Source: a virus (lineage: Duplodnaviria; Heunggongvirae; Uroviricota; Caudoviricetes). Taken from it: 64,000 bases of DNA. This document shows positions 24,862 through 60,768 of the stretch, one piece after another. A program made the translations under genes and the position numbers. Each line of letters begins with the position of its first letter. Within the stretch, counting starts at the first letter, position 1. The DNA is taken from the IMG/VR virus record IMGVR_UViG_3300033804_000036. The stretch is one strand, 5' to 3'. The notes beneath the pieces were generated by a model. That model did not search any database. It worked only from the letters and a program-made list of their open reading frames with translations, and was not told where the DNA came from.

Positions 24862-24890
24862 ATTCCCTTCTTTTTTTGGGTGAAAAAGAA
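24862..24890 (+). promoter_or_regulatory. Intergenic motif copy upstream of PCNA
   Basis: aaaATTCCCTTCTTTTTTTGGGTGAAAAAGAAATG. Confidence 0.7.
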
Positions 24891-25637
24891 ATGAAGATGA
24901 AAATAGCTGATTCGCAACTGCTCGTCAAAACAATGTCCGCCATAGGCATACTGGCCAATGAAGGAACGTTCCAGATCGACGCTGACGGGTTCAGGCTGCG
25001 GGCGATGGACCCGTCTCGAGTTGCAATGGTTGATTTTTCATGGCCGAAAACAGTCTTTGAAGAATTTGTCTGCGACACACCGACGAAACTGTGCTTCCAC
25101 ATCGGCGAACTGTTGAAACTGGTGAAACGAGCGTCTAAAAACGAACCAGTCGAATTGTCAACCACGGACAAAGGCAAACTGCAAATTTCCATCGCTGGAA
25201 AACGCAACTTCACCATGCCGATACTGGAAAGCTCAGAAGAAGAAGTGCCAGTGCCCAAAATCACCTTCAATGTTAAAGCCAAAGCAACAGCCGACGGGCT
25301 TCGAAACGCGGTGGAAGACACGCAGGTCGTCAGCGACCACGTTAAGATACTGGCAGAAGCAGACAAACTGGGCTTCACAGCGCAAGGCGACCTTATGGAC
25401 GCTGACATAACACTGCAAAAAACAAGCGACACACTCCTAGACCTTGAAACACAAACCCCGCCGCAGAAAGCCACGTACAGCCTAAGCTACCTGACAGAAG
25501 TGCTGAAAGCAGGAGCAGCGTTAGCCGACATAGTCACTGTTGAGTTTTCCACGGACATGCCGATAAAACTGGACTTCCAAACCAGCAAAGACGGCAAACT
25601 GACATACTACCTAGCCCCACGCATAGAATCAGAATAA
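24891..25637 (+). CDS. pcn: PCNA, the archaeal/eukaryotic-type DNA sliding clamp
   Basis: ~248 aa. Two-domain clamp pattern. The C-terminus YYLAPRIESE is a typical archaeal PCNA ending. Confidence 0.8.
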   Translation: MKMKIADSQLLVKTMSAIGILANEGTFQIDADGFRLRAMDPSRVAMVDFSWPKTVFEEFVCDTPTKLCFHIGELLKLVKRASKNEPVELSTTDKGKLQISIAGKRNFTMPILESSEEEVPVPKITFNVKAKATADGLRNAVEDTQVVSDHVKILAEADKLGFTAQGDLMDADITLQKTSDTLLDLETQTPPQKATYSLSYLTEVLKAGAALADIVTVEFSTDMPIKLDFQTSKDGKLTYYLAPRIESE

Positions 25638-31813: not shown

Positions 31814-32610
31814 TGGAAAAAACATTCACGGCCATTGTTTTGCCTGGAGACACTAAAGTCCGAGAATTGACGCCTGAAGGCATAGTTGAATATACGAAGC
31901 TTACTCCGCAATCTGGAATAATCGTCTTTGGCAAACACAAAGATTTTGCAGATCCACTACGATTCGCTGAGCCTCACGAAAGAACAGAATTGTTTGACGC
32001 TCTAAAGCTGCCTCAGGTAACAGTTTTGCCAGTGATGAAAACTTCAAGCTGGTTATGTTTACCGGTCAATCGTAATCAATACGGAAAGTCTGTTAAGGCT
32101 AAGGCGCCGCTTCCATTATTGTTTGAAACCAATCCTGTAAGCATGTTTGACCCGGTGCTTGCTCGAGTCTATAAGCAGCGGCGAACATGGCTGATCTACG
32201 AGGACATCAACGAAAGATTTCCAGCAGGTCAGATAGACTTGCTTCGCACAGCGTTTACATACATGGAAAACATGGGCGGTTACCAGACACAGCCAAAGTT
32301 TGCGTTGCCGAAGGAGCTTCGTGAAGCGTTGGAACTGGCGGTAGCCACTACTGAACGGCCTATTGAACGGATGGTCAAATACGCTTTGAAGCTGGCAGGT
32401 GCTACACTTGTGAAGCTGGAGGACATGGGCAATGGACAATACCGAGTCAACTACCACTACAAAGACTACGACGATTCAGTGATCATCAACGATAAACTGA
32501 CAGTCATCAGTTCAGGAATATGTCTCTCAGGCCGAGACATGGAGCAAGACTTAACCTCAATAGTGTTCGTACTTGATAAAAAACACAGAGAAGATGATAA
32601 CGATGATTGA
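31810..32610 (+). CDS. Hypothetical protein, ~266 aa
   Basis: gccggtgaaATGATG. Confidence 0.5.
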   Translation: MMEKTFTAIVLPGDTKVRELTPEGIVEYTKLTPQSGIIVFGKHKDFADPLRFAEPHERTELFDALKLPQVTVLPVMKTSSWLCLPVNRNQYGKSVKAKAPLPLLFETNPVSMFDPVLARVYKQRRTWLIYEDINERFPAGQIDLLRTAFTYMENMGGYQTQPKFALPKELREALELAVATTERPIERMVKYALKLAGATLVKLEDMGNGQYRVNYHYKDYDDSVIINDKLTVISSGICLSGRDMEQDLTSIVFVLDKKHREDDNDD

Positions 32611-33256
32611 GTGTGCATGTGGATGTGGCGAGACATTTAGACCAAGTATCTACTCAGGCAAAGATGGACAAGTTTGTGCGCGTTTCAAAAGAGGACACGC
32701 TACACATAAATCGTGGAATAAAGGAAAAACCAAACAAGATACACCAAAACTTGCAATAGCAGCGCAAAAAACATCTACAACTCGCAAGAGACTTATTGCA
32801 GAGGGAAAACTGAAAGTAATTCAACGCCCACGTACACTCGAAGAGAGAAAACATCTAAGTGAAGTACGAAAAAGATTATTTGCTGAAGGAAAACTACCGA
32901 CACCTATTGGTTGTCCCGGAAGAAAATCAACTCCCGAAGAACTAAAAAGAAAAAGCGAAAGCATGAAGAAAGCTTGGCAAACAACACGTCAGCATCATGA
33001 TCGAACAGTTGAAGAAACTTGCGCTAGACTTAATTGTCAAGGCTTTAAAACAATTCCGCTTTCAGGTCAGAGATATCAACCTGATGGAATTATCGTTGAT
33101 TTTGAGAATAGAAAAATTCTGGCGCTAGAAGTCGAAAGACAACCCACACCCAAACGAATGAGAGGTTGGAACCCTAGAAAAGACTTTGACGATATATTCA
33201 TCGTTGACATATCAATTCCAAAATGGAGGCAATCATCAAATGAATTTTCATTGTAA
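32573..33256 (+). CDS. Zinc-ribbon / PD-(D/E)xK-like nuclease candidate
   Basis: N-terminal CACGCGE ... CARFKRGH. C-terminal QPDGIIVDF ... ILALEVE resembles a restriction-endonuclease-fold motif. Confidence 0.4.
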   Translation: MIKNTEKMITMIECACGCGETFRPSIYSGKDGQVCARFKRGHATHKSWNKGKTKQDTPKLAIAAQKTSTTRKRLIAEGKLKVIQRPRTLEERKHLSEVRKRLFAEGKLPTPIGCPGRKSTPEELKRKSESMKKAWQTTRQHHDRTVEETCARLNCQGFKTIPLSGQRYQPDGIIVDFENRKILALEVERQPTPKRMRGWNPRKDFDDIFIVDISIPKWRQSSNEFSL

Positions 33257-33378: not shown

Positions 33379-33555
33379 ATGAAGAAACACGTCAAAATAT
33401 TTTACTCCAATCTTGAATCAACCGTAGAACCACTCGAGGAAAAAATCAATGCTTTTCTTGAAGATAAGCCATGGTTTGACATTCTGCCGCCCGTGATGGT
33501 CGGCTGCGCAATGTTTGTCATGGTCATTTATGAGGAGGCTTCGAAGGATGAGTGA
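33379..33555 (+). CDS. Small membrane protein, 58 aa
   Basis: aggagg RBS. Hydrophobic C-terminal helix. Overlaps the E1-like gene start. Confidence 0.35.
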   Translation: MKKHVKIFYSNLESTVEPLEEKINAFLEDKPWFDILPPVMVGCAMFVMVIYEEASKDE

Positions 33556-34255
33556 GAGACAGTTTTTGCATGAGGAACTGTACCGTGGAAAAAACTATGG
33601 TAAACTCAAGGATAAGGTTGTTGTGATGGCCGGATGTGGAGCGATAGGCAGTTGGACTGCCACGTTTCTGGCAAGAATGGGCGTTGCAAACTTTCGGCTG
33701 ATCGACAAAGACCGGATAGAAGACCATAACGTTTCTACGCAGACGTTTCTGCCTGCCAACGTAGGCCAATACAAAACCCGTGCTTTACAGGAACAGCTTT
33801 ATAGGATCAGCAAAGCCAGATGCGAACTGCAACCAGTAGAACTGACAACCCAGAATCTTTCTCTCCTACACAAATGTGATCTGGTCATTTGCACCTTCGA
33901 CAACTCTGCATCACGCCAACTTGTTAAGTCAGCAGCCTTAAGCGAAAAAATAACGCCGTTAACAAAGGTACAAGGACACGACGGCCATGGAAGTTTCATC
34001 GGAGTAATTCAACGTATGTTTCCATGCGTCTTTGCAGGCATGAATGGACAGGAAGCCTACTTCGAAGTTGTGTGGGCTGAAAGCTACAAAGTTCCCAAAG
34101 ACCCAGAACAGGCTGAACTGGACCCATGCGCCTATCCGCTGAGCACGCCGCTTGTCACATCAGTAGCCGCAGCAACCGCCGAAATCGCAGTCCAATACCT
34201 GCTGACAAACCAGAAACTCACATGCAGACAAACACTAAACCAAACAATCTCCTAA
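33548..34255 (+). CDS. E1-like enzyme, ThiF/MoeB/UBA family
   Basis: VVMAGCGAIGSWTATFLARMGVANFRLIDKDRIEDHNVSTQ (Rossmann GxGxxG followed by the DxD region). Confidence 0.7.
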   Translation: MSERQFLHEELYRGKNYGKLKDKVVVMAGCGAIGSWTATFLARMGVANFRLIDKDRIEDHNVSTQTFLPANVGQYKTRALQEQLYRISKARCELQPVELTTQNLSLLHKCDLVICTFDNSASRQLVKSAALSEKITPLTKVQGHDGHGSFIGVIQRMFPCVFAGMNGQEAYFEVVWAESYKVPKDPEQAELDPCAYPLSTPLVTSVAAATAEIAVQYLLTNQKLTCRQTLNQTIS

Positions 34256-34928: not shown

Positions 34929-34948
34929 TTTTTCTGTTGGGTGAAAAA

Positions 34949-35671
34949 ATGTCTGAATATCCAAAGATTGAAACATTGTTTGACCGCGACCCGAAAACGG
35001 TCAAGGTTGACGAAAGCAAAATTCGACTGCCAGAGTTTCTAATGGTAAGCAAATGGTACGTCACAGAGAAAATTGACGGAACAAACGTACGGACTGATTT
35101 CAAAACCAAATGGGAACCAACTGGAAAGTTTCTAAGTCCAAACCAGCCTGTTGTTCAAAATGCTGGTCGCGTGGTAGAAGTTGCGGGCAGAACTGAAAAT
35201 GCGCAGATGCCGCCGTTTCTCTATCGGTTTCTGTCCGACACTTTCACTCTGGAAAAATTGCAGCAAACATTTCCAGATCTTGAACCTCATATCACCGTAA
35301 CAATTTACGGCGAAGGTTACGGACCAAAAATTCAAAGCGGAGGTAACTATCGCAAAGACATTGCGTGTAGACTTTTTGACGTGAAAGTTGGTTCGTGGTG
35401 GCTTGAACCTGACAACATCGACAGTGTAGCTCGGAAGCTGGGCATTCAAACTGTTCCGTTGATTTCGGAAGCCATGACCATTGAAGACGCAGTCGCATTC
35501 GTCAAGAATAAACCGCAATCCAAAGTTTCAATGCAGGAATATGAAGGCATATGCAAAGACGGAAAATATCCATCAATAGAAGGCATAGTAGCAAGGACTA
35601 CACCGCTATTGTTGCGACGCAACGGCGAAAGACTAATGTGGAAACTGAAATGTAAAGACTTCAAACTCTAA
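34949..35671 (+). CDS. ATP-dependent RNA-ligase-like nucleotidyltransferase (Rnl family)
   Basis: Motif I KIDGTNV, motif IV-like EGIVAR, motif V WKLK. Confidence 0.62.
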   Translation: MSEYPKIETLFDRDPKTVKVDESKIRLPEFLMVSKWYVTEKIDGTNVRTDFKTKWEPTGKFLSPNQPVVQNAGRVVEVAGRTENAQMPPFLYRFLSDTFTLEKLQQTFPDLEPHITVTIYGEGYGPKIQSGGNYRKDIACRLFDVKVGSWWLEPDNIDSVARKLGIQTVPLISEAMTIEDAVAFVKNKPQSKVSMQEYEGICKDGKYPSIEGIVARTTPLLLRRNGERLMWKLKCKDFKL

Positions 35672-35752
35672 CTTTTTCTATGGGTGATAAGATGAGTGTT
35701 GTAAATCTTGGGGAAACAGTGGGAGTGGCTGAGACAGTTCTACGTGGACATG

Positions 35753-36133
35753 CTTCAAACTGTTGAGAGATCTCAGATGGACAGTAGAGAACGAGGCTTT
35801 TTCATAGTGCAGAACGAAGGCAGGTTTCCAGTCCGCACGAAAGTCCAAGTTGGCAACGGCGGCCAGGTTGTTCTCAGAATGAAGAGTTTAGAACCGTTTC
35901 TAACGGTGGAAAGCAGGTTGATGAGCTTCCACACGCACTGTTTTGGAAGCGGTGCACCAAGCAGGACCGATGGAGATACAGCCATCGCTCTTGGAGAAGA
36001 ATACACGGTCATAGGCTACCCAGCGATAAACAGAAAAGCAACAACGGTGCTAAGTCTACCCCGTATCGTAGTGTGGCAAATCACGAGTAAACAGGGCAGG
36101 TTCTTTAATGCAAAACGAATCTTCAAATTCTGA
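35753..36133 (+). CDS. Hypothetical protein
   Basis: ORF in a different frame from the short motif-initiated peptide at 35691. The start is uncertain. Confidence 0.3.
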   Translation, partial: LQTVERSQMDSRERGFFIVQNEGRFPVRTKVQVGNGGQVVLRMKSLEPFLTVESRLMSFHTHCFGSGAPSRTDGDTAIALGEEYTVIGYPAINRKATTVLSLPRIVVWQITSKQGRFFNAKRIFKF

Positions 36134-36795: not shown

Positions 36796-36872
36796 AGACA
36801 ATTAGCTCAACCTGGTTGAGCATTGGCCTATAGAGCCGAAGAATGAGGGTTCAAATCCCCCATTGTCTACCA
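36796..36872 (+). tRNA. tRNA with an AUA anticodon (Tyr-like) and CCA encoded. The only + strand tRNA
   Basis: Acceptor AGACAAT/ATTGTCT, D-arm GCTC-aacctggtt-GAGC, anticodon arm TTGGC-CTATAGA-GCCGA, T-arm GAGGG-TTCAAAT-CCCCC, then A-CCA. Confidence 0.55.
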
Positions 36873-37149: not shown

Positions 37150-37629
37150 ATGAATTGGGGATATGTGGCAGGCTTCTTTGATGGAGAAGGTTGTTTAACT
37201 TTCTCATATGAAAGTAAGCAAGTAGCTCCAAGAATTGAAATATCAAACTGTAACTCGGATACATTAGAAGCACAAAGAACTTTTACAGGTAACTTAGGTC
37301 ACATAAACCCGTATAAGCCGCGACGTAGACATAGTGGCTTACTCCCGAAATACACAAAGAATACCCGACCGATTTGGCGATGGGACATTGCTCATCGCGA
37401 CGACGTACAAACTTTCCTTGAAAACATAAAATCCTTTCTTATCATTAAGAAAGATTTGGCTGAGCTAGCACTCGTAATAATCGCAAATAATGACTACTCC
37501 AAATGTTCACATAAACTTCACAGAGTTGACCAGAAGAAATTCGACGCAAATATTGGAAAGAGGAGAAGACCTGCAAGGAACTTGGTAAAGAGTATAAAGT
37601 GCATCCAATGGCGATTCAAAAATTCATGA
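37150..37629 (+). CDS. LAGLIDADG homing endonuclease, single motif
   Basis: MNWGYVAGFFDGEGCL. A tatatag TATA-like element lies upstream, where the GGGTGAA motif is absent. Confidence 0.65.
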   Translation: MNWGYVAGFFDGEGCLTFSYESKQVAPRIEISNCNSDTLEAQRTFTGNLGHINPYKPRRRHSGLLPKYTKNTRPIWRWDIAHRDDVQTFLENIKSFLIIKKDLAELALVIIANNDYSKCSHKLHRVDQKKFDANIGKRRRPARNLVKSIKCIQWRFKNS

Positions 37630-37704
37630 TTAGGTACAATATCCCGAGGCGCAAAGCTGCCAAATTTAAGCGGCAACTTCCTCTTTTTTCTGTTGGGTGA
37701 AATT

Positions 37705-38034
37705 ATGAACAGAATTCAAAGAAAAAGAACAAAAGGATGGAAGATGTCGCCCAACACAGTATATGTTGGGCGGCCTACTAAATGGGGAAATCCATGGACG
37801 ATAAAGGAATATGGACGCGAAGATGCTTTGAGACTATATGAATCTTGGTTACGTGAGGAAATCTTACTTGACCCTGACTTTCTTGAGCCGCTCAAAGGCA
37901 AAGACCTTGCCTGCTGGTGCCCGCTTGACAAACCATGCCACGCCGATGTTATCCTGAAAGTCTTAGGCGAAAAGCCTAACATTGGCTTTCCTGACTACGG
38001 TTCTCCAATCGAATCTCCAAATCTAGGAGGATAA
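37705..38034 (+). CDS. DUF4326-like protein
   Basis: gggtgaaattATG. GRPTKWGNPW ... CWCPLDKPCHADVI. Confidence 0.45.
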   Translation: MNRIQRKRTKGWKMSPNTVYVGRPTKWGNPWTIKEYGREDALRLYESWLREEILLDPDFLEPLKGKDLACWCPLDKPCHADVILKVLGEKPNIGFPDYGSPIESPNLGG

Positions 38035-38062: not shown

Positions 38063-38248
38063 ATGAGGCTAGGATTCAACATAGGAGCTTTCCTTGTGGG
38101 TTTCGGCACACCAGCGTTCGTTTACGGTGTTGTCGAATGGTGCTCACAGAAGCCACGTGTATTCTACCTAGTTGAAATGGTTGTGGGACTTTCTGTAACT
38201 GCAGCAGGATTTCTCTTGATATATGCTTCGGAGAAAAGAAAGAAATGA
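38063..38248 (+). CDS. Small membrane protein
   Basis: Two TM helices. Confidence 0.45.
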   Translation: MRLGFNIGAFLVGFGTPAFVYGVVEWCSQKPRVFYLVEMVVGLSVTAAGFLLIYASEKRKK

Positions 38249-39042
38249 CAAAGTTCACGTTTGACAAGTTCAGCTTTGACATCGACAAGTCTTTCCTGAA
38301 GCTTTCACTGCTGCTGGTTGTCAGCGGATCCCATGCTTACGGATGGCCTACTGAAGCAAGCGACTTGGATGTACGCCATGTTTTCGCCCCTGAAATCAGA
38401 CAGGCACTCAGCATATTCTACAAATGCAAGACAGAACAGCGTAAAGAAAAACATGAGGAAGGACTGATTGAATTCACAACCTATCCGATTCAGCCTTTCC
38501 TCGGGCTGCTCGCTAAAGGCAACGGAAACGTGCTGGACAACCTTTTCGAAGCCACAGGACCGCCGCAGCCAGTGCTTTACGTTGACAAACCGAAAGTTGT
38601 GGAATTGCAGAAAATAGTTCTTGATCATCTGCACAAAGGGTTTCTGATGCACTGCACCGGGTACGACACTCATCTGAAGAAAGACATGGAAAACGAGACG
38701 AGGCTAGCGCGGTACGGCAGAGAGAAGCTGCTGCTTAACAGGTACAAGATTCTGCTGGAAGGACTGATCCTCGCCAACTACGGCGAAGTAGTCTACAATC
38801 TCAGGAAACAACACGAATACATAAAGACGCTCTGGTGCATTGAACTACTAGAAGATTACCAAGCAGGCAGGCCGTTTCTCGCGTTTCTCGGCAGAAGAGC
38901 AAACCAAGAAGCAACACTTGAAGTTGAGCAACTGCATAGTCGACTGGTAAAGTTGACGGAAACAATAAAGTGGCCTACCGCAGGGCAAAGCACCATCGAC
39001 GTTCCCTTGGACAGATGGTTAATCAATCACTATCTCCCCTAA
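38245..39042 (+). CDS. Pol-beta-superfamily nucleotidyltransferase
   Basis: VSGSHAYGWPTEASDLDV (GS ... D.D). Substrate unknown. Confidence 0.55.
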   Translation: MTKFTFDKFSFDIDKSFLKLSLLLVVSGSHAYGWPTEASDLDVRHVFAPEIRQALSIFYKCKTEQRKEKHEEGLIEFTTYPIQPFLGLLAKGNGNVLDNLFEATGPPQPVLYVDKPKVVELQKIVLDHLHKGFLMHCTGYDTHLKKDMENETRLARYGREKLLLNRYKILLEGLILANYGEVVYNLRKQHEYIKTLWCIELLEDYQAGRPFLAFLGRRANQEATLEVEQLHSRLVKLTETIKWPTAGQSTIDVPLDRWLINHYLP

Positions 39043-39698: not shown

Positions 39699-39924
39699 GT
39701 GAACCACCATGCGTGAAATGTAAACAAACTATGCCTGAAGAATGGCTGAAACAAAACTGCCCATGCGCGGAAAGAAAGGCTTGGGAAGCTAATCAGGAGA
39801 AAGAAAATGAAGGAAGAAAGAGAAGAAAACATAGACCCTGAAGAAGATGATCCCACAACTGATCTGTTGGCGGAGGAAGAAAATGCCGAACTGCAAAGGC
39901 GCGAATAGTTTCAGGGGTGACAAC

Positions 39925-41301
39925 ATGAACAACCTTTTGCTTCAAACAGATTCGTACAAGCAGTCGCATTGGAAACAGTATCCACCAGGAACAACCAACA
40001 TCTACAGCTACTTCGAAAGCAGAGGAGGAGAATATCCTGAAGTGGTTTTCTTCGGCCTACAATATATTCTGAAACGATACTTGGAAGGACAAGTGGTTAC
40101 AGAAGCCAAAATCGAAGAAGCCGAAAAAATCTGCGCCCTCCATTTCGGCAGTGAAGACCTGTTCAACAAAGACGGCTGGAACTATATTCTCGATGTCCAT
40201 GGTGGCAAACTTCCGCTTTCAATCAAAGCGGTCCCTGAAGGAACAGTTGTGCCAACCCATAACGTGCTGGTAACCGTGGAAAACACAGATCCTAACGTGC
40301 CTTTCCTAACCAATTTTGTAGAGACTCTTCTAGTGCAAACATGGTATCCAAGCACAGTAGCCACATTGTCACGACACATCAAACAACTGATAAACAGGTA
40401 TCTGGAAATCACTGGTGACCCGTCCTTAATCGACTTCAAACTACACGACTTCGGCTTCAGAGGAGTATCTTCAACAGAAAGTGCTGGTATAGGCGGCTGC
40501 GCTCATCTAGTCAACTTCAAAGGCACAGACACAATGGCGGCGCTGATGATCGCCAGAGAATACTACCATTGTGAAATGGCAGGCTTCAGCATTCCAGCAG
40601 CAGAACACAGCACCATGACCGCATGGGGAAAAGACCATGAAGTAGACGCTTTCCGCAACATGCTACGCAGCTACCCGAAAGGCACAGTCGCCGTCGTCTC
40701 CGACCAGTACGACATTTACAAAGCATGCGCAGACCTCTGGGGAACCCTGCTTAAACAAGAAGTTCTGGAAAGAGACGGAGTCCTAGTTATCCGGCCAGAC
40801 AGCGGCAACCCGCCTGAAGTTGTCTTGAAAGTAATCAGCATCCTCGGCGAACATTTCGGCTACTACAAAAACGACAAAGGCTACAAAGTCCTGAACAACC
40901 ACGTTCGAGTGATACAGGGAGACGGCGTTGACGAGCAGATGATAGAAAAAGTTTTGAAAACCTTGGAACTGAGCAGATGGAGCACGGACAACATTTCATT
41001 CGGCATGGGCGGCGGCCTCCTGCAGAAACTTCACAGAGACACGCAGAAATTCGCGTTCAAATGTTCAAACGCCGTCGTCAACGGAGAACAACGCCTAGTC
41101 TTCAAAACTCCTATAACAGACCCGGGTAAAAACAGCAAGGCTGGACGACTTAAACTGGTCAAAAGCAACGGCACATACATAACCGTTCCCGAATGGGCTG
41201 ACAGGTACGGGCCAGACCGGCTTGTGCAAGTTTTCCTCAACGGCTACGTCACTACAAAATATTCTATGGACACAATCAGGGAACGGGCCAAAATAAGGTG
41301 A
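39925..41301 (+). CDS. nadV: Nicotinamide phosphoribosyltransferase (NAMPT/NadV-type)
   Basis: aggggtgacaacATG. N-terminal LLQTDSYKQSHW, GG ... LSIKAVPEGTVV, ~460 aa. Confidence 0.8.
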   Translation: MNNLLLQTDSYKQSHWKQYPPGTTNIYSYFESRGGEYPEVVFFGLQYILKRYLEGQVVTEAKIEEAEKICALHFGSEDLFNKDGWNYILDVHGGKLPLSIKAVPEGTVVPTHNVLVTVENTDPNVPFLTNFVETLLVQTWYPSTVATLSRHIKQLINRYLEITGDPSLIDFKLHDFGFRGVSSTESAGIGGCAHLVNFKGTDTMAALMIAREYYHCEMAGFSIPAAEHSTMTAWGKDHEVDAFRNMLRSYPKGTVAVVSDQYDIYKACADLWGTLLKQEVLERDGVLVIRPDSGNPPEVVLKVISILGEHFGYYKNDKGYKVLNNHVRVIQGDGVDEQMIEKVLKTLELSRWSTDNISFGMGGGLLQKLHRDTQKFAFKCSNAVVNGEQRLVFKTPITDPGKNSKAGRLKLVKSNGTYITVPEWADRYGPDRLVQVFLNGYVTTKYSMDTIRERAKIR

Positions 41302-44735: not shown

Positions 44736-44769
44736 AGGAAAATCGCTGGCTAAGAAAAGAGGAAATGAG

Positions 44770-44841
44770 TCCTCTCACATGGATTCGCACCATGACTTCT
44801 TGGTTTACGGCCAAGTGTGCTAACTACTACACTATGAGAGG
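44770..44841 (-). tRNA. tRNA-Tyr(GTA)
   Basis: Hand fold: acceptor cctctca/tgagagg, T-arm catgg-attcgca-ccatg, anticodon arm cttgg-tttacgg-ccaag (RC loop CCGTAAA). Confidence 0.55.
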
Positions 44842-45224
44842 CTGATTTCGTATTTCAGTCCAAATTTATTCTCGATATAATGTGCGGCATTGCAAACATG
44901 ACACAGCACGTTAAACTCGTTTTTTCGTTGTTCTCGAAGAATACTTCTAAGTAATTGCCAATATCCGTGTGTTTTCTGATCTTTATGTCCTCCGAGGTTA
45001 AGGTGATTGATTTCCAACACGGCGAAGACGGTACATCCACATCTTGCGCATTTTGCTCCGCCGAGGTATTCAAGCACCTTTAACTTCAAATTTTGTTTGG
45101 CTCGGCTGTCTATGATGTGTTGTTTTTCAGGATTTTTCTGTCTCCATTTTTTCACGTAGTCACGATTGAACTCTCTCATATAGGTTCGTCGTTTGTCCTT
45201 GTCTTTGTATCTATCGTGTGGCAT
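44832..45224 (-). CDS. HNH endonuclease
   Basis: CARCGC ... EINHLNLGGH ... CHVCN. Paralog of 48099-48470 and 48850-49263. Its 3' end overlaps the 5' end of tRNA-Tyr. Confidence 0.65.
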   Translation of the reverse strand: MPHDRYKDKDKRRTYMREFNRDYVKKWRQKNPEKQHIIDSRAKQNLKLKVLEYLGGAKCARCGCTVFAVLEINHLNLGGHKDQKTHGYWQLLRSILREQRKNEFNVLCHVCNAAHYIENKFGLKYEISLS

Positions 45225-45258
45225 AACAGATTAATAATATCTGTTATGCTATATACCC

Positions 45259-45828
45259 TTATGCTACGGGGAGTCCTACAACCGAAGTTATGATCCAGAT
45301 CTTGTCAGAAGTTGCCAGTGGCGATGGCACAGTGTACGTTTTAATCCAGAAAGTCACAGTGTAGTCGTCATAGTCGAATTTGCAGCCTGTTTTTTCTTCT
45401 TCGTTCATCTTGACAAAGACATCGTAGAATCGTCTTTGAAGTTCAGGATCGTCTTTAGACGTGACACGCAAAGTTTTGCCAGACGCCAAATGCAGCACAT
45501 TCTTCGCGCAGTTGCGAATGAACCCGTCAATCTTGTCCTTGTTCTTCGCCCGTATCCAACCGCTTTTGAACACTCGACGAACCTGAAGTCGCTTGTCAAC
45601 TTTTGCGAGCAGAAGGCTGATTTCCCCTTCAGCGTTGAACCTTGCAGAAACCAATGTAGGCCGCTGGAACTGTCCTCTACTCTCCTTAACAGGATACATA
45701 GGCGTCACTTCTTCAATGTAAACACCGAACCCGCCAAACAAGTATCTCAGATATTTGGCGTTGTCACTGTACACTAGAAACTTCGTCACCTCCTTGGGCA
45801 AATCCAAACCTTTCGAACTCACTTTCAT
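45259..45828 (-). CDS. Hypothetical protein, 189 aa, in the tRNA array
   Basis: Perfect GGAGGTGA SD before the ATG. Lies between tRNA-Pro and the HNH gene. Possibly a nuclease. Confidence 0.5.
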   Translation of the reverse strand: MKVSSKGLDLPKEVTKFLVYSDNAKYLRYLFGGFGVYIEEVTPMYPVKESRGQFQRPTLVSARFNAEGEISLLLAKVDKRLQVRRVFKSGWIRAKNKDKIDGFIRNCAKNVLHLASGKTLRVTSKDDPELQRRFYDVFVKMNEEEKTGCKFDYDDYTVTFWIKTYTVPSPLATSDKIWIITSVVGLPVA

Positions 45829-45845
45829 TCACCTCCGTATATTAT

Positions 45846-45938
45846 ACCTATGAATGGGGAATAAGGGATTTGAACCCTTGACCACGACGTTTCTTGAGAT
45901 TATCTTCCCAAGCGTCGGATGCTTAGTCCAAGCTACAC
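45846..45938 (-). tRNA. tRNA-Pro(TGG) with a ~16-nt intron
   Basis: Acceptor ggggaat/attcccc, T-arm aaggg-atttgaa-ccctt, anticodon stem CGACG/CGTCG enclosing loop CTTGGG plus intron. Confidence 0.55.
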
Positions 45939-45993
45939 CAATTCCCCACAGATTTTATTATTTTGTGATTTTATTATTTTCTGATTTTATTAT

Positions 45994-46105
45994 TGGCGGA
46001 GCAGCCGGGATTTGAACCCGGGCCGTACGATTACTGCAGACGGAAGTTTGCAACTATTTCTTCCGTCTTAGACAGTCGCACATCCTACCGCTGGACCACT
46101 GCTCC
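45994..46105 (-). tRNA. tRNA-Asp(GTC) with a ~38-nt intron, CCA encoded
   Basis: Acceptor ggagcag/ctgctcc + G + CCA. D-arm GTCC-agcggta-GGAT. Anticodon stem TGCGA/TCGTA. Intron hairpin GACGGAAG ... CTTCCGTC. Confidence 0.6.
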
Positions 46106-46162
46106 CTCGAGCGCGGTTTTCATGTTGTTTTTCCATCTTTTGAATTCCCTCGAGCGCAGAGA

Positions 46163-46234
46163 GGGCCGAGGGCGGGAGTCGAACCCGCATCCCAGGATTC
46201 ACAGACCTGTATCCTACCGTTAGCCTACCTCGGC
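46163..46234 (-). tRNA. tRNA-His(GTG) with G-1 encoded
   Basis: Acceptor GCCGAGG plus an extra 5' G pairing the discriminator C. Loop CTGTGAA. Confidence 0.65.
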
Positions 46235-46342
46235 CACTGTGTATGCCTTGCTGAACCAAGTCAGCTAGGGCTTCGGTCCCAATGGAGTTTTACGCTAGCT
46301 TATCCTAAGCCTTCCTTAATGGTTCTGGCATTTAGGCCACAG

Positions 46343-46415
46343 TGGAGAGGATGGGAATTGAACCCATGATAACGGCCTCTTCAGGACCGCGCCTTCCCTC
46401 TTGGCGACCTCTCCG
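46343..46415 (-). tRNA. tRNA-Phe(GAA)
   Basis: Acceptor ggagagg/cctctcc. Anticodon arm CGGTC-CTGAAGA-GGCCG. Confidence 0.6.
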
Positions 46416-46417
46416 AG

Positions 46418-46490
46418 CGCCGCCCGATGGAGTCGAACCATCACCTTCTGGCTCAACAGGCCAGCGCACTACCATTTATGCTAAGGCGGC
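46418..46490 (-). tRNA. tRNA-Asn(GTT)
   Basis: T-arm gatgg-agtcgaa-ccatc. Anticodon arm ctggc-tcaacag-gccag (RC loop CTGTTGA). Confidence 0.6.
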
Positions 46491-46494
46491 ATAG

Positions 46495-46568
46495 TAGGCG
46501 AGGGGCGACTCGAACGCCCACTACCGACTTATAAGGACGGCGTGCACAGCCACGTACACTACTCGCCC
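46495..46568 (-). tRNA. tRNA, anticodon unresolved (possibly TAT)
   Basis: Clear T-arm gggcg-actcgaa-cgccc and a 7-bp acceptor. The anticodon arm has a mismatch. Confidence 0.4.
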
Positions 46569-46592
46569 ACTTGTGGTGCGTTACGCACCGAG

Positions 46593-46663
46593 TGCACTCG
46601 GCGGGAATTGAACCCGCGTCTCCGCCATGGCAAGGCGACATCTTACCACTGGACCACGAGTGC
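46593..46663 (-). tRNA. tRNA-Gly(GCC)
   Basis: Perfect acceptor gcactcg/cgagtgc. Loop RC TTGCCAT. Confidence 0.55.
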
Positions 46664-46667
46664 TTGG

Positions 46668-46783
46668 GGCCGGTGGAGAGATTTGAACTCTCATCTTGCT
46701 GCTTACTCGGCAGGTACATGCTTACGATCTGCGTAAGGCGCTGCTTACAATGCAGGCGCTCTAACCATTGAAGCTACACCGGC
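46668..46783 (-). tRNA. tRNA-Thr(TGT) with a ~42-nt intron
   Basis: Acceptor gccggtg/caccggc, T-arm gagag-atttgaa-ctctc. Loop ATTGTAA. Internal hairpins. Confidence 0.5.
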
Positions 46784-46787
46784 ACAG

Positions 46788-46861
46788 TGGGGATACTTGG
46801 ATTTGAACCAAGATCAACGGTTCTGGAGACCGCCATGCTAATCCGTTGGCACCATATCCCC
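46788..46861 (-). tRNA. tRNA-Trp(CCA)
   Basis: Acceptor ggggata/tatcccc. Anticodon stem cggt/accg. Loop RC CTCCAGA. Confidence 0.55.
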
Positions 46862-46890
46862 TTTTGCCTCAGAGATTCATCACAGGCGGA

Positions 46891-47038
46891 TAGGCGCGGA
46901 AGGAGTTGAACCTTCGTTAATTGCTTTCTTGGTTCCATGCTGGGGTGTCATCCCTCTTACCACGCCACGTCTACGTTTCCGACTAGCGACCAACACGAAA
47001 CTTGTAAGGCAAATGTCCTACCGTTAGACCACGCGCCT
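46891..47038 (-). tRNA. tRNA-Val(TAC) with a ~77-nt intron
   Basis: Acceptor aggcgcg/cgcgcct, T-arm gaagg-agttgaa-ccttc. Loop CTTACA plus intron. Confidence 0.45.
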
Positions 47039-47045
47039 GCTATGG

Positions 47046-47320
47046 TAGCCCCGGAGAGAATCGAACTCTCGTCATCGGCTTTCTCCAGCGTTATCGGAAG
47101 AGGCTGACACCAGCACGGTTTCTGCGCACCGTACCGCACGCTCCCCAGTACCGACACTTCCTGGGACTTAGGTTAGGCACATACCTCCTTTGCCGACGCA
47201 TCCAAAGGCTTATGCCCTCGTTAAGACACACCTCTTAGTCGCCCACAGAGGATTCTGGTACTACCAGAGCGTCAAAGTCTTTCAGAGGCCGACATCCTTT
47301 TCCAGTTGGACTACGGGGCT
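47046..47320 (-). tRNA. tRNA-Gln(CTG) with a ~200-nt intron
   Basis: 3' half 47047-47079: acceptor agccccg, T-arm gagag-aatcgaa-ctctc, stem TCGGC. 5' half 47281-47320: cggggct acceptor, D-arm GTCC/GGAT, stem GCCGA, loop CTCTGA. Confidence 0.5.
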
Positions 47321-47459
47321 GCGAAACTAGACGCGCTCAACCTCAGGGAACTAACAACGTGCCATAAGGCAAAGGCTCTTTTTGTAGCCACGTTCTGTTG
47401 CCCTGCTTGTACTGGCTACCATCGGATATGTCATCTAGTTTTCTTCAGGCGCGTCGGAG

Positions 47460-47530
47460 TGCAGGATCCGCGAGTTGAACGCGGGTCTTAGCCTTGGAGG
47501 GGCCACGTCCTACCACTAGACTAATCCTGC
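47460..47530 (-). tRNA. tRNA, anticodon uncertain (loop CCUCCAA; Gly-TCC with C33?)
   Basis: Perfect acceptor gcaggat/atcctgc, T-arm ccgcg-agttgaa-cgcgg. Confidence 0.45.
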
Positions 47531-47548
47531 AAGTAGACTGCCTGCAAG

Positions 47549-47620
47549 TAGGCGTGGTCGGGGTTGAACCGACACATACAGCTTATCAGACTGTTGTGCA
47601 GACCAGCTACACCACACGCC
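47549..47620 (-). tRNA. tRNA-Ile(GAT)
   Basis: T-arm gtcgg-ggttgaa-ccgac. Anticodon arm acagc-ttatcag-actgt (RC loop CTGATAA). Confidence 0.55.
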
Positions 47621-47624
47621 CATA

Positions 47625-47771
47625 TACAGAGGAGAGGATTTGAACCTCCGTTCTCAAGGTTTCTCGCATCTCAATCGGCTAGGGATGCACGGCTAGTTCC
47701 TAGCAACCATCTAACGTGCTTCCATGAGATGTTATGAGCCTTGCGGGATAGCCTGACTACCCTACCTCTGT
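47625..47771 (-). tRNA. tRNA-Met(CAT) with a ~72-nt intron and an A1:U72 acceptor
   Basis: Acceptor acagagg/cctctgt. Anticodon stem caagg/ccttg. Loop CTCATAA. Confidence 0.5.
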
Positions 47772-47783
47772 TCGTTATTTTGG

Positions 47784-47929
47784 CGCTGGGTAGCGGATTT
47801 GGACCGCTGGTACCTTTTTGGGGTACATCAGATTTCTGCGGCCTCCATTCGAGTTACGCCCTTGTGAAGCGTTCAAGTCTCGTCTTGCCCATAGCAATCT
47901 GACGCATTAAGCCGCTCTGCCAACCCAGC
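47784..47929 (-). tRNA. tRNA-Ser(GCT), type II, with a ~58-nt intron
   Basis: Acceptor gctgggt/acccagc. Variable-arm hairpin GTACC-ccaaaaa-GGTAC. Anticodon stem TCAGA/TCTGA. Loop TTGCTA. Confidence 0.5.
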
Positions 47930-47947
47930 ACTTATATTTTTTGGTCA

Positions 47948-48108
47948 TAGTGGGGGTGGGATTCGAACCCACGCGTTGGCCCCTACGGGAAGAGGTTTCT
48001 CACAGGCTGAACAGTCGTTCTTAGCCGTCCTTAGCATCGAGCCTACGACTTGAGCTTCGAGCTTTAGTCTTAAGCCTCTCGCTTTCAGCCATGCTTAGCT
48101 ACCCCACT
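47948..48108 (-). tRNA. tRNA-Leu(TAA), type II, with a ~72-nt intron
   Basis: Acceptor agtgggg/ccccact. Variable arm TCCCGTAGGGG. Anticodon stem AGAGG/CCTCT. Loop CTTAAGA. Confidence 0.5.
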
Positions 48109-48470
48109 ACATTGTCTGGCAACCATTTTATGTCCCAATGATCTTCAATACCTCTTAACCTTGTCAAACAATGCCACGCATTGCATACTCTACAGGTTAG
48201 TTCCAGTTCATCTTTGTTTTGTTTTCCGTTCAGTATCGCAAAGTAGAATGCTCTTCGTGTCTGCCACTTCTTCCTTTTATGTCCGCCTCCGTTCTTATGG
48301 TTAATTTCCAAAGCTTCGGATATATCGCAACCACAATACACGCATTTTCCTCCAAGGAAAGCAAGCACGCGTTTTCTGAGCATCCGTCCATATTCGGCTC
48401 TTTGTAGTCTTCTTTTTCTTTGCCATTCTTTTTGATAGACTCTGTTTACTTCTCTATCAGCGTATGGCAT
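48099..48470 (-). CDS. HNH endonuclease
   Basis: CVYCGC ... EINHKNGGGH ... CRVCN. Overlaps the 5' end of tRNA-Leu. Confidence 0.65.
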   Translation of the reverse strand: MPYADREVNRVYQKEWQRKRRLQRAEYGRMLRKRVLAFLGGKCVYCGCDISEALEINHKNGGGHKRKKWQTRRAFYFAILNGKQNKDELELTCRVCNAWHCLTRLRGIEDHWDIKWLPDNVVG

Positions 48471-48520
48471 GAAAGAGGATATGGGTTCGACGGTATTAAG
48501 GTTATTGTTGAACCTTGTGG

Positions 48521-48642
48521 CGGATCCGGCGGGATTTGAACCCGCGAGTGGGAGCTATCCCTGCCCATTGTTTAAGGGGATCAGGCTTAAAGGGTTCAGG
48601 CTTCGCTGTCTCCTGCCTTAGACCTTACTGGGCGACGGATCC
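48521..48642 (-). tRNA. tRNA, intron-containing, anticodon unresolved
   Basis: Perfect acceptor ggatccg/cggatcc, T-arm gcggg-atttgaa-cccgc. Middle contains repeated GGGGATCAGGCTT / GGGTTCAGGCTT. Confidence 0.4.
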
Positions 48643-48650
48643 ATGTTTGG

Positions 48651-48816
48651 CGGGTGCGGAGAGATTTGAACTCTCGATCTGGAGGTTTCTCCAGTTCCTA
48701 ACTTTCGTAGCGTCAGGCTATTTCGGGTAATATCAACCTATCGAAGCATCAGGCTCTCAGAAGCTTCAGGTTTCTTTAGGAACCTCCTGCCTTCTTCCGA
48801 GCTAGGCGACGCACCC
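48651..48816 (-). tRNA. tRNA-Arg(CCT) with a ~90-nt intron
   Basis: Acceptor gggtgcg/cgcaccc. D-arm GCCT/AGGC. Anticodon stem GGAGG/CCTCC. Loop TTCCTAA. Confidence 0.5.
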
Positions 48817-48820
48817 TTGG

Positions 48821-49407
48821 TGGTCCCTCCGGGATTCGGACCCGGCTCGTTAGGTATGAAGTCTGATGTTTCGATATATCGTGGTCCAATTCCACTTCAG
48901 GTACTTCATGCAGAAGTGAACTCCGATGTGACACCAGTAGCATAGACGAACCCATTCGTCTGGTTCTAACAGTGCACGACGGAGTTCCGCTAAGGAATAA
49001 CTATGCTTTTTTCCATCTTTTCTATGGAGACTTAGTCTGTATTTACTGTTATCGCAGAGGATACACTTAGTTCCCCATACGATATCTCTCTGTTTCTTTA
49101 ATGTCTCCTTATACTGTCGTGTGCATTCGTTATTTGCAATTCTACGCTCCTCGAGGTTCTGTTTTTCACGTTTAATAGTAGTTCGCGTTGGAAGACCAAG
49201 TTTTTTCCTCTTGTACCACTCTCGTTGGTAGGTTCGTTTTGTTTCTCTATCTTTGAAAGGCATGAACTACTTATGGTTTTGAACCCTTATTAGTCTTTCG
49301 AACCCATCAGATGTCTTCCGTTCTGGATGAAAGCATCGTCCTCTCGTTGAGAGCCTAACATCCTTAGACGGCAAATTGTGCCTTTGTCCAGAATAGACTA
49401 AGGGACC
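48821..49407 (-). tRNA. tRNA-Glu(CTC) split by a ~490-nt intron enclosing an HNH gene. A second short insertion near the D-arm is possible
   Basis: 3' part 48822-48854: acceptor ggtccct, T-arm ccggg-attcgga-cccgg, stem ttagg. 5' part 49347-49407: stem cctaa, loop CTCTCAA, acceptor agggacc. Confidence 0.45.
48850..49263 (-). CDS. HNH endonuclease inside the putative tRNA-Glu intron
   Basis: CILCDN ... SLHRKDGKKH ... CYWCH. Same strand as the tRNA. Confidence 0.6.
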   Translation of the reverse strand: MPFKDRETKRTYQREWYKRKKLGLPTRTTIKREKQNLEERRIANNECTRQYKETLKKQRDIVWGTKCILCDNSKYRLSLHRKDGKKHSYSLAELRRALLEPDEWVRLCYWCHIGVHFCMKYLKWNWTTIYRNIRLHT

Positions 49408-49411
49408 GAGA

Positions 49412-49484
49412 GCGAGGTGCACGATTTGAACGTGCGAATATCGGTGTTGCGGACCGACGTGTTAACCATACTTCACCAACCCCG
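49412..49484 (-). tRNA. tRNA-Cys(GCA)? (loop CCGCAAC has C33)
   Basis: T-arm gcacg-atttgaa-cgtgc. Anticodon stem tcggt/accga. Confidence 0.45.
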
Positions 49485-49492
49485 CTTGAATT

Positions 49493-49586
49493 GTGGTGGA
49501 AGCTGGCGGATTCGAACCGCCGATCTTCTGCTGTTTTGGGATTGTTGTCCTTGCAAAGCAGTTGCTCTACCTCTGAGCTAAGCCCC
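49493..49586 (-). tRNA. tRNA-Ala(TGC) with a ~19-nt intron, CCA encoded, G3:U70
   Basis: RC reads GGGGGCT-TA-GCTCagaggtaGAGC-A-ACTGC-TTTGCA[intron]A-GCAGA ... GGCGG-TTCGAAT-CCGCC-AGCTTCC-A-CCA. Confidence 0.6.
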
Positions 49587-49780
49587 CATTAAAAACGGAT
49601 GCAAGGGAAATTCAACGTGGACTTAACCGCTTTTACTGGGCGGCTGACGCTTCAGAGTCTTGTGTTTTATGCTGTGGTCTACTCAGGCGGTTTAATCCGC
49701 CCTCCTTACATGAGAAGACTATAGACCCTTGCATGAAACACATTTTCAGTCCACTTAGCTTCAAGAGTGGCAGTTTCATG

Positions 49781-51667: not shown

Positions 51668-52492
51668 CTAGAATCGTTGTCCAGAAGCAACTTGGCCGCA
51701 ATAGTCGCATTGCTGTCCCGAACAGGAGTCACATGTGAAACGGCGGGAGCCTGTTCGTAGCGCAGCCCGCATTTCTCGGATGCATTTTCCAACTTTTTTC
51801 AGTCGTTGCCAAAACTGGATTTCTTCTTCGTTCACCATGGCTTTCAAGTCGTTCTGGTTTATTGACAGGTCAAAGCCGCCGGTTGTAAAGTAGGCGGCTC
51901 TGCTGTACGCGCATCCGCTTCCCAGCATACGCTGGCTTGCAGGCCAAAAGTCGGAAATATCAACTGTTGACGTTATGCTTCCTTCGCCGTAGATGGTTCG
52001 GAGAGCATGAAACAGATCATCGTCTATCCATGCACTACCACTCACGCCTACAACCTGCGGATCCTCGAAATGTCTGAGCAGCAGATTCACAAAGTTTGTG
52101 CCGTAATACGAGTCACCATCCACGGCGACAACGATGTCTCCGTCAACCTGTCGAAGCGCAGTGTCTATAGCCGTGAGTTTTCCGCGTGGAGCAGTGATGA
52201 CCCTGTCAGCCATTTCCTCTGCTACGTCGACTGTTCCATCTGTGCTTTCGCTGTCAACCACGACTATTTCAAAGTTGTCAGGGTAGGCAACGATTATGTT
52301 CTGGTTCCAGAGTGAACATAGAGCTTTTTCAACGTATGCAGCCTCATTCAACGTCGGCATCAACACTGTAACCTTGCCAATCTTACTCATGTCAGCCAAG
52401 CTAGCGTCCGTCACGTTCACCGAATTCGTCATTCGCGAATGCGAAACGGCTAAGCCTGCAAGTGTGCCGAGGGCAAACAGAGCAAGAGACAT
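51668..52492 (-). CDS. Family-2 glycosyltransferase (Dpm1-like) with an N-terminal signal anchor
   Basis: VLMPTLNEAAYVEKAL ... EIVVVDSESTDGT ... VDGDS (DxD). Confidence 0.7.
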   Translation of the reverse strand: MSLALFALGTLAGLAVSHSRMTNSVNVTDASLADMSKIGKVTVLMPTLNEAAYVEKALCSLWNQNIIVAYPDNFEIVVVDSESTDGTVDVAEEMADRVITAPRGKLTAIDTALRQVDGDIVVAVDGDSYYGTNFVNLLLRHFEDPQVVGVSGSAWIDDDLFHALRTIYGEGSITSTVDISDFWPASQRMLGSGCAYSRAAYFTTGGFDLSINQNDLKAMVNEEEIQFWQRLKKVGKCIREMRAALRTGSRRFTCDSCSGQQCDYCGQVASGQRF

Positions 52493-59769: not shown

Positions 59770-59817
59770 GTTGGTTCTCCGAATACCCCTTTTGTGTTAG
59801 AAAGGTTATAAAGTTTT

Positions 59818-60099: not shown

Positions 60100-60128
60100 T
60101 TCTATCAGTCATACTTCTGTCTTAAAGA

Positions 60129-60542: not shown

Positions 60543-60545
60543 ATT

Positions 60546-60761: not shown

Positions 60762-60768
60762 TTATCTT

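Follow-up and report, generated by a model that had tools for sequence, protein, structure and literature searches.

An intact Nampt/NadV gene on a virus-like element probably associated with Bathyarchaeia, and its likely role in NAD+ supply during infection

Introduction

What an archaeal virus-like element gains by carrying its own nicotinamide phosphoribosyltransferase (NAMPT, also termed Nampt or NadV) is the question raised by a 64,000-nucleotide stretch of DNA, hereafter the window, from the IMG/VR virus record IMGVR_UViG_3300033804_000036. Depletion of nicotinamide adenine dinucleotide (NAD+) serves bacteria as a major antiviral strategy, and the reconstitution of NAD+ by phages has recently been established as a counter to it. 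The archaeal side of this conflict is almost unexplored.

The initial annotation of the window, made from its sequence, described NAMPT/NadV as a classic auxiliary gene of large phages that is often paired with nicotinamide mononucleotide adenylyltransferase (NMNAT). In the literature, no NAD-salvage gene is more widespread in phages than NadV (PMC9503650), and 94% of the bacteriophage genomes with a KVP40-type Nampt also encode Nmnat (bioRxiv 10.1101/2024.02.11.579819). Viral Nampt is already well established in phages (PMC9503650; bioRxiv 10.1101/2024.02.11.579819). NAMPT has also been listed among the auxiliary genes of DPANN and candidate phyla radiation (CPR) viruses from acid mine drainage (PMC12647753), and it is not mentioned in a published survey of Bathyarchaeia viruses.

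Here we report a detailed analysis of the window NAMPT, its catalytic residues, relatives, genomic setting and possible pathway partners. We consider it likely that this Nampt-type enzyme, encoded on an archaeal virus-like element, makes nicotinamide mononucleotide (NMN) for the host NMNAT and so keeps NAD+ up during infection. The finding is modestly new in its probable association with Bathyarchaeia, in the lack of a partner gene, and in the placement of the enzyme outside the bacteriophage NadV lineages.

Identification of a full-length Nampt/NadV gene

The NAMPT gene lies within the open reading frame (ORF) 39847..41301 (+) of the ORF list and starts at the ATG at 39925, giving a protein of 458 amino acids (aa) that begins MNNLLLQTDSYKQSHW. 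The same start is shared with the JGI gene call P0001 (identical protein, 458 aa) and with a 91%-identical relative (P0003), and with this start position 1 of the NAMPT_N profile aligns at residue 3 of the protein. A Shine-Dalgarno-like sequence, AGGGGTGA, at 39913-39920 also favors it over the upstream ATGs at 39847 and 39883.

The coordinates given in the initial annotation were confirmed, and the N-terminal motif and the length that had suggested NAMPT there belong to a protein with the full-length family architecture, in which NAMPT_N (PF18127; E 9.5e-42, residues 3-100) is followed by the type II phosphoribosyltransferase (PRTase) barrel NAPRTase (PF04095; E 2.1e-57, residues 171-415). 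The NCBIfam equivalog NF006629, a NadV-type model, matched at 618.8 bits against a cut-off of 405 and spanned residues 2-457 of 458, and PHROG 448 ("nicotinamide phosphoribosyl transferase") matched at 539 bits. Among the structures in the PDB, human and rat NAMPT matched over the full length with 521-535 bits and the Xanthomonas Nampt with 498 bits; the identity to rat NAMPT is 54% over the full length. These family scores are far above chance and identify the window gene as a genuine, intact, full-length Nampt/NadV. Assignment to the PncB-type nicotinate PRTases, which the initial annotation had named as the competing possibility, was rejected on the scores of NF006696 (39 bits, cut-off 503), NF009131 (38 bits, cut-off 330) and TIGR01513 (36.5 bits, cut-off 297).

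Catalytic residues and the distinction between Nampt and Namat

In human and rat NAMPT, H247 is the site of autophosphorylation, D219 determines nicotinamide selectivity, and Y18 and F193 stack on the ring, while 5-phosphoribosyl 1-pyrophosphate (PRPP) and NMN are bound by R196, R311, D313, G353-D354, G383-G384 and R392. R311 and the phosphorylated histidine are also cited in published work (PMC12774641; bioRxiv 10.1101/2024.02.11.579819). We rebuilt residues 10-482 of rat NAMPT from the alignment with the rat structure 2g95 and mapped the sites onto the window protein. All of them are conserved: rat D16, Y18, F193, R196, D219, H247 and R311 correspond to window D9, Y11, F176, R179, D202, H228 and R290; rat D313, G353-D354, G383-G384 and R392 to D292, G332-D333, G362-G363 and R371; and rat K400, K415 and K423 to K379, K394 and K402.

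Most phage proteins annotated as "NAMPT" are in fact Namat, the NARP1 enzyme, which uses ADP-ribose pyrophosphate (ADPR-PP) and always occurs with the Prs-like Adps (bioRxiv 10.1101/2024.02.11.579819). Namat and Nampt are homologous, with the same Pfam domains and catalytic core (PMC12774641), and Namat is only 33-36% identical to human Nampt (PMC12774641; bioRxiv 10.1101/2024.02.11.579819). Namat is marked by an adenine "selectivity clamp" formed by aromatic residues in the SCH helix, F392 and Y396 in the SPbetaL1 enzyme (PMC12774641). The clamp positions in the window protein are G364 and K368, the state of Nampt (G/A385 and K389 in human and rat), whereas the Adps-linked homologs of Staphylococcus phage GH15 and Mycobacterium phage Bromden, each 35% identical to the window protein, have F and F/H there. 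In the alignment with PDB structures, the beta1-beta2 loop of the window protein is short, as in bacterial Nampt. The window protein thus resembles the NARP1 Namats (SPbetaL1 and Bas63, with the homologs in GH15 and Bromden) in its fold and in a catalytic core that includes the phosphorylated histidine, and it differs from them in its low identity and in lacking both the clamp aromatics and an adjacent Adps gene. We assign it by sequence to the PRPP-type Nampts, not to Namat, because of its Nampt-state clamp residues, its identity of 54% to rat Nampt versus 35% to the Adps-linked homologs, and the lack of a Prs/Adps gene in the 74 kb searched.

Composition, recurrence and selection

The claim of the initial annotation that NAMPT is carried on the element as an auxiliary gene was supported by several lines of evidence. 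Its GC content (48.1%) and its GC content at third codon positions (GC3; 53.8%) are within one standard deviation of the values for the other plus-strand genes (45.5 +/- 3.4% and 47.9 +/- 7.8%, respectively), and its codon usage correlates with that of these genes at r = 0.84, which is among the highest values in the window. The same gene order, with an identical protein, was found in an independent Logan assembly of SRR10854783 (contig L001). In a contig from a second JGI sample (L002), NAMPT, the upstream RlaP-family gene and the downstream DUF5131 gene are 91%, 85% and 75% identical to their window counterparts and syntenic with them, and the tRNA region is shared. Comparison of the NAMPT genes of the window and L002 gave nonsynonymous and synonymous divergences of dN = 0.052 and dS = 0.60, and their ratio of 0.086 indicates strong purifying selection on NAMPT. 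An assembly chimera or a decaying passenger gene is ruled out by the composition, the recurrence in L001 and L002, and the dN/dS ratio.

Relatives of the window NAMPT

All 2,020 matching records in the phage database are less than 60% identical to the window NAMPT, the best being at 53-55%, and six bacteriophage NadV proteins that we fetched and aligned are at most 55% identical to it. The nearest non-self relatives, at 65-68%, are chromosomal NAMPTs of Micrarchaeota and NAMPTs of other virus-like contigs. The Micrarchaeia proteins (P0009-P0012; 68%, full length) are encoded next to SecY, SRP54, TBP and CysRS, and the SRP54 on that NAMPT-bearing contig is 79% identical to Micrarchaeia proteins; close chromosomal homologs therefore do occur in DPANN archaea, a point to set beside the remark of the initial annotation that the gene is rare in archaeal genomes. 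These are the closest cellular homologs and fall into the same loose tree cluster as the window protein, and they differ in lying in a housekeeping context as opposed to that of a mobile element.

The virus-like contigs L013, L074 and L075 resemble the window in their NAMPTs (65-68%) and in their small co-directional orphan ORFs. On L013, a DNA ligase, NAMPT, Nudix and Band7 are encoded; on L074, genes for JAB, ThiF and endonuclease V accompany NAMPT, which directly precedes a Nudix gene; and in L075 NAMPT lies amid small orphan ORFs. NAMPT is the only gene that they share with the window, apart from a weak ThiF match in L074, and L013 and L074 differ from the window in having a Nudix gene next to or near NAMPT. 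Bacterial NadV proteins follow closely, with 66% identity for the protein of an nrtR-nadM-nadV-prs operon (L006, P0041) and 64% for that of Flectobacillus. In this salvage operon a regulator, an NMNAT-Nudix protein and a PRPP synthetase stand alongside NadV, whereas the window NAMPT stands alone amid unrelated viral genes.

We built a neighbor-joining tree of 121 sequences, including the six bacteriophage NadV and two Namat proteins, with 100 bootstraps. The window protein and P0003 pair at 100% bootstrap, their sisters P0014 and P0089, each from a virus-like contig, join at 29%, and support for the surrounding cluster of 27 members, which includes the Micrarchaeota sequences, is 8%; the bacteriophage NadV and Namat proteins are outside this cluster. 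By these comparisons the window NAMPT belongs to a cellular-type Nampt radiation common to uncultivated viruses and organisms of the DPANN/CPR kind, and lies outside the known NadV lineages of bacteriophages. For the phylogeny proposed in the initial annotation, of phage NadV versus cellular NAMPT, the outcome is a cellular-type cluster shared with Micrarchaeota and virus-like contigs, and grouping with phage NadV was not recovered. We claim no donor lineage because the deeper placement has only 8-29% support. None of the best 120 NAMPT matches carries a Bathyarchaeia name, which is compatible with, and does not prove, a gene foreign to the presumed host lineage.

A further set of proteins with high bit scores and about 55% identity (P0004-P0008, P0015 and P0019; 658-793 aa) was considered as intein-bearing close relatives and rejected, since these ORFs, partly from marine eukaryote transcript collections, are head-to-tail tandem NAMPT copies. 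Scans of genome and metagenome contigs with NAMPT returned only bacterial homologs of about 52-53% identity (Acidoferrum among the genomes, and unlabelled contigs of similar identity among the metagenomes) via one shared peptide word, and were uninformative. No relatives were found in scans of IMG/VR with NAMPT, the AAA ATPase and the sliding clamp PCNA of the element.

Search for NAD+ pathway partners

The search for partner genes covered about 74 kb of the 90.4-kb source contig, namely the window and 10 kb past its right end (L015). For the window, 123 non-overlapping ORFs of at least 55 aa were translated and run against Pfam as concatenated queries at E <= 1e-3. No CTP_transf_like (NMNAT), Nudix, Pribosyltran/Pribosyl_synth, PnuC or NadR domain was found among these 123 ORFs, and no Sir2, Macro, ART or KptA domain. 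A regular-expression search for the HIGH-NMNAT motif and the Nudix box, whose sensitivity was limited as judged by positive controls, returned a single match that spans a stop codon. We also ran phmmer against all stop-to-stop ORFs of at least 35 aa in the window and the 10-kb extension, with the Myxococcus phage Mx1 NMNAT, two other HIGH nucleotidyltransferases (NTases), the Nudix proteins of L013 and L074, a NadM-like protein and Prs as queries. The NMNAT, NadM-like and Nudix queries reached a best E of 0.24 over these 74 kb, and the initial annotation's impression that no NMNAT partner is present therefore held. For Prs/Adps, neither a Pribosyltran nor a Pribosyl_synth domain was found in the window and its extension, and the best E of the Prs query was 5.4.

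Proposed role in NAD+ supply

The predicted NAMPT would join nicotinamide and PRPP to give NMN and pyrophosphate (PPi), and ATP-driven autophosphorylation of the conserved His228 (His247 in mammals) probably aids this catalysis. The NMN would then be converted to NAD+ by the host NMNAT, with PRPP provided by the host Prs; we assign both to the host because the element appears to lack NMNAT, Nudix and PRPP synthetase. NMNAT is essential in all cells, and nicotinamide is a product of Sir2/TIR-type NADases and of ADP-ribosyl transfer. The net result would be a two-step route from free nicotinamide back to NAD+, which could keep NAD+ available in infection either against NAD+-cleaving defenses or by a plain increase in supply. 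In bacteria, the pair of Nampt and Nmnat (NARP2) overcomes Thoeris, DSR, SIR2-HerA and related defenses, and it also raises NAD+ when no defense is present (bioRxiv 10.1101/2024.02.11.579819). Counter-defense and simple NAD+ supply both fit the window gene, and the present data do not separate them.

The element and its probable host

Besides NAMPT, the window encodes PCNA, an ATP-dependent DNA ligase, an AAA+ ATPase, an S-adenosylmethionine (SAM) methyltransferase, two LAGLIDADG endonucleases, an HtrA-like protease, a Band7 protein, ThiF, several winged helix-turn-helix (wHTH) and ribbon-helix-helix (RHH) regulators, and a nonulosonic-acid-type glycan cluster. Genes of ribosomal, tRNA-synthetase or central-metabolism type were not found in the 64 kb. 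About 80% of the ORFs are small orphans arranged in long co-directional arrays, and NAMPT itself lies within a co-directional block of small genes. On this gene content we take the window for an archaeal virus-like element.

The window PCNA shares 64-67% identity with over 100 cellular PCNAs, of which the named ones are from Bathyarchaeota/Bathyarchaeia save for two probably mis-binned bacterial labels, and only 25-28% with the PCNAs of haloarchaeal viruses. Such likeness to host proteins is unusual in a viral clamp, and we found no other clue to the host. This PCNA and the insertion-bearing tRNAs described below mark the element as archaeal, and it is probably associated with Bathyarchaeia. 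A Micrarchaeota host, suggested by the NAMPT similarity, was considered and rejected, as the PCNA of the element points to Bathyarchaeia and NAMPT likeness alone is no host signal. At 27.5% identity over 95% of its length, the AAA+ ATPase resembles gp08 of Acidianus tailed spindle virus (Bicaudaviridae). No other gene is shared with that virus, and the match gives a faint hint of kinship with the large spindle-shaped viruses of Thermoproteota.

The window also contains 17 tRNA genes by Rfam (12 by ARAGORN), nearly all in one dense array. Six of the 17 span 91-161 nucleotides (nt) yet match the whole 71-position tRNA model, with insertions of 20-90 nt, presumably introns of the archaeal type. 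A comparable tRNA array is present in the related contig L002.

Alternative explanations

Several points weigh against the role proposed above. The host assignment is based on one gene, PCNA; neither Pfam nor PHROGs revealed a capsid, portal or terminase in the 74 kb; some 8-16 kb or more of the 90-kb source contig was outside the search and could hold a partner gene; and, judged by the phage statistics cited above, a Nampt without Nmnat is atypical.

The first alternative is that the window is not viral, being instead a cellular fragment binned in error or an element of plasmid-like, other extrachromosomal or integrated kind, with NAMPT as an ordinary cellular salvage gene. It would account for the missing virion and packaging genes (the large unknown ORFs of the window and its 10-kb extension likewise gave no Pfam or PHROG virion matches), for the lack of IMG/VR relatives of NAMPT, the AAA ATPase and PCNA, for the chromosomal location of the closest cellular NAMPTs, and for the large glycan-biosynthesis cluster at the right end. 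We nevertheless regard it as unlikely, given a gene set devoid of ribosomal, tRNA-synthetase and central-metabolism functions and made up largely of small orphans, the typical viral cargo (17 tRNAs, LAGLIDADGs, DUF5131, RlaP with an RNA ligase, PCNA and DNA ligase), and the full-length match of the AAA+ ATPase to a spindle virus protein; moreover, the virion proteins of archaea-specific viruses usually escape profile searches.

The second alternative concerns the genes upstream of NAMPT. The Pol-beta NTase that the initial annotation had placed there is real, and was identified as a member of the RlaP family, with a match that covers only positions 21-144 of the 249 in the PF10127 profile. Its sequence retains the GS...DxD nucleotidyltransferase motif intact. 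The family name is short for "RNA ligase-associating Pol-beta", and the two characterized members of the family add one or two nucleoside monophosphates (NMPs) to the 3'-OH of damaged RNA, which enables tRNA repair (PMC12776372); among jumbo phages, RlaP is distributed in parallel with RNA ligases (PMC7824862). In the window, an ATP-dependent RNA ligase gene lies 2.6 kb upstream of the RlaP gene on the same strand. Between them, a DUF4326 gene encodes a protein of a rhodanese-phosphatase clade proposed to act on the ribose-linked phosphates of ADP-ribose derivatives (Iyer et al., PMC9503650). By analogy, we infer that this neighborhood resembles the early-gene islands of large phages that combine NAD+/ADP-ribose (ADPr) and RNA-repair genes; the link between DUF4326 and NAMPT is likewise only inferred.

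NAMPT might serve chiefly these neighboring RNA-repair and ADP-ribose-processing genes, not defense evasion, by supplying NAD+ for RNA end healing by a host enzyme of the Tpt1/KptA type or for the handling of ADP-ribose derivatives. The RNA ligase, DUF4326, RlaP and NAMPT genes lie within 5 kb on the same strand, NAD+/ADPr domains, RNA repair and NAD salvage are linked in the islands of large phages, and the KptA found widely among archaeal cells could be recruited (PMC9503650). However, no KptA, ART, Sir2, Macro or NAD-dependent ligase was detected on the element, whose two ligases are both of the ATP type, and NAMPT adjoins RlaP only in the window and its close relative L002, not in L013, L074 or L075. 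We therefore judge such a service quite improbable, and the closeness of RlaP to NAMPT is no evidence of a shared pathway.

Under a further alternative, the RlaP-type NTase or another protein of the RNA-ligase/DUF4326/RlaP/NAMPT island would itself adenylylate NMN in a non-canonical viral NAD+ pathway. The NTase is adjacent to NAMPT and co-directional with it in both the window and L002, and its catalytic motif is intact. Yet the characterized RlaP enzymes act on RNA 3' ends only (PMC12776372), the known NMNATs all have the HIGH-motif Rossmann-like fold and not the Pol-beta fold (PMC9503650; established knowledge), and the adjacency is confined to the immediate virus group, with related viral NAMPTs pairing with Nudix instead. 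If true, this would be a new type of NAD+ reconstitution in archaeal viruses without a HIGH-motif NMNAT; we give it very little credence. Because of the biochemistry of RlaP and the RNA ligase nearby, the NTase is best read as an RNA repair enzyme and is unlikely to be an NMNAT substitute.

Lastly, a Namat-like (NARP1) enzyme that converts nicotinamide and ADPR-PP directly to NAD+ would explain the missing NMNAT, and the domains and catalytic core shared with Nampt (PMC12774641) and the many phage "NAMPT" annotations that are Namat would allow for it, but no Adps/Prs-like gene was found on the element in the 74 kb searched and the protein has the higher identity to Nampt, the residues G364/K368 and a short beta1-beta2 loop, so that this reading is hardly tenable.

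Comparison with known systems and significance

The closest functional parallel to the preferred reading, a viral Nampt that makes NMN for the host NMNAT, is the NARP2 system, exemplified by NadV and NatV (Nmnat-Nudix) of Vibrio phage KVP40. Like KVP40, the element carries a PRPP-type Nampt as an auxiliary gene, with the same domains and catalytic residues, and its expected product, NMN, would feed the reconstitution of NAD+. It differs in having no Nmnat/Nudix partner in the 74 kb and in a host that is archaeal and not bacterial, and the KVP40-like Nampt of Vibrio phage Va3 is only 44% identical to the window NAMPT. An intact Nampt under selection, on an element whose PCNA points to Bathyarchaeia, suggests that NAD+ supply is also contested or limiting in these abundant sediment archaea. 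The find supplies a concrete enzyme to test; it leaves knowledge of the enzyme family and the pathway unchanged, and the gain is incremental.

Other features of the element

The coordinates of NAMPT and of the other features discussed here are given in Table 1.

Table 1. Selected features of the window, with the evidence for each
Feature	Coordinates	Strand	Evidence or remarks
Nampt/NadV gene	39925..41301	+	458 aa plus stop; Pfam, NF006629, PDB matches, conserved catalytic residues, dN/dS
Shine-Dalgarno-like AGGGGTGA	39913..39920	+	4 nt upstream of ATG 39925; read directly from sequence
RlaP-family Pol-beta nucleotidyltransferase	38245..39042	+	PF10127 E 4e-13, 50 bits (cut-off 23); PHROG 388
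DUF4326 protein	37693..38034	+	Pfam PF14216 E 2e-25; PHROG 464
ATP-dependent RNA ligase	34937..35671	+	Pfam RNA_ligase PF09414 E 4e-13; PHROG 548; likely RlaP partner
DUF5131 (phage Gp37/Gp68-like)	42008..42739	+	Pfam PF07505; downstream of NAMPT, syntenic in L002
PCNA sliding clamp	24876..25637	+	Pfam PCNA_N plus PCNA_C
AAA+ ATPase	8810-10483	+	Acidianus tailed spindle virus gp08
tRNA array	44769-49587	-	Rfam, ARAGORN
Single tRNA	36796-36872	+	Rfam
Insertion-bearing tRNAs	45855-45947, 45997-46105, 46668-46783, 46891-47038, 47948-48108, 49497-49587	-	Rfam
LAGLIDADG genes	12942-13682, 37150-37629	+	Free-standing
ThiF/E1-like protein	33515-34255	+	
JAMM-motif protein	35708-36133	+	141 aa; Prok-JAB E 0.28
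ORF of foreign composition	32573-33256	+	227 aa; no family match
483-aa protein	29384-30835		No Pfam support even at E <= 1
GT2 gene	51668-52492		
Repeat protein	55648-57996	+	782 aa
DNA repeats	56274-56462		Within the 782-aa protein gene
Glycan cluster	58118-63715		Continues in L015 1-10000

The DUF5131 gene is the conserved downstream neighbor of NAMPT in the virus group of the window, and it has no known NAD link. Its product contains CPHKCKYC, a CxxxCxxC motif, and is weakly matched by "radical SAM mobile pair" models, and the IMG/VR scan with DUF5131 returned two loci at 35%. The RNA ligase, DUF4326 and RlaP cluster, taken with the tRNA array, looks like a tRNA repair kit against host anticodon nucleases.

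Close to the ThiF/E1-like protein, the window encodes a 141-aa protein that bears an exact JAMM motif, HTHCFGSGAPSRTD (HxHx7Sx2D), and for which Prok-JAB scored only E 0.28; the pair may form a ubiquitin-like modification module. In the unrelated virus-like contig L074 (1732-3280), JAB plus ThiF are found a few genes upstream of NAMPT. A 483-aa protein that had been taken by eye for Ro60/VWA was rejected for want of Pfam support.

The two free-standing LAGLIDADG genes have GC contents of 37.8% and 39.0%, markedly below the 45.5% of the element, and probably invaded it recently as selfish genes; the second lies just after the single plus-strand tRNA. GC3 reaches its window minimum of 25% (mean 48%) in the 227-aa ORF, which is compositionally foreign.

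The glycan cluster, which extends from the window into L015, comprises MptE-like, WbqC, UDP-GlcNAc 2-epimerase-like and NeuB genes, followed by genes for CTP_transf_3 (CMP-sugar synthetase-like), a DegT aminotransferase and two surface-repeat proteins of the Flg_new_2 type; a GT2 gene lies at 51668-52492. The cluster may glycosylate virion or host-surface proteins. The 782-aa protein consists mostly of repeats of about 20 residues (…SKALQKTLTETL.F.D…) and is fibre-like, its gene includes 3.2 near-identical copies of a 60-bp DNA repeat, and its only match, a weak one, is to a PHROG with no assigned function.

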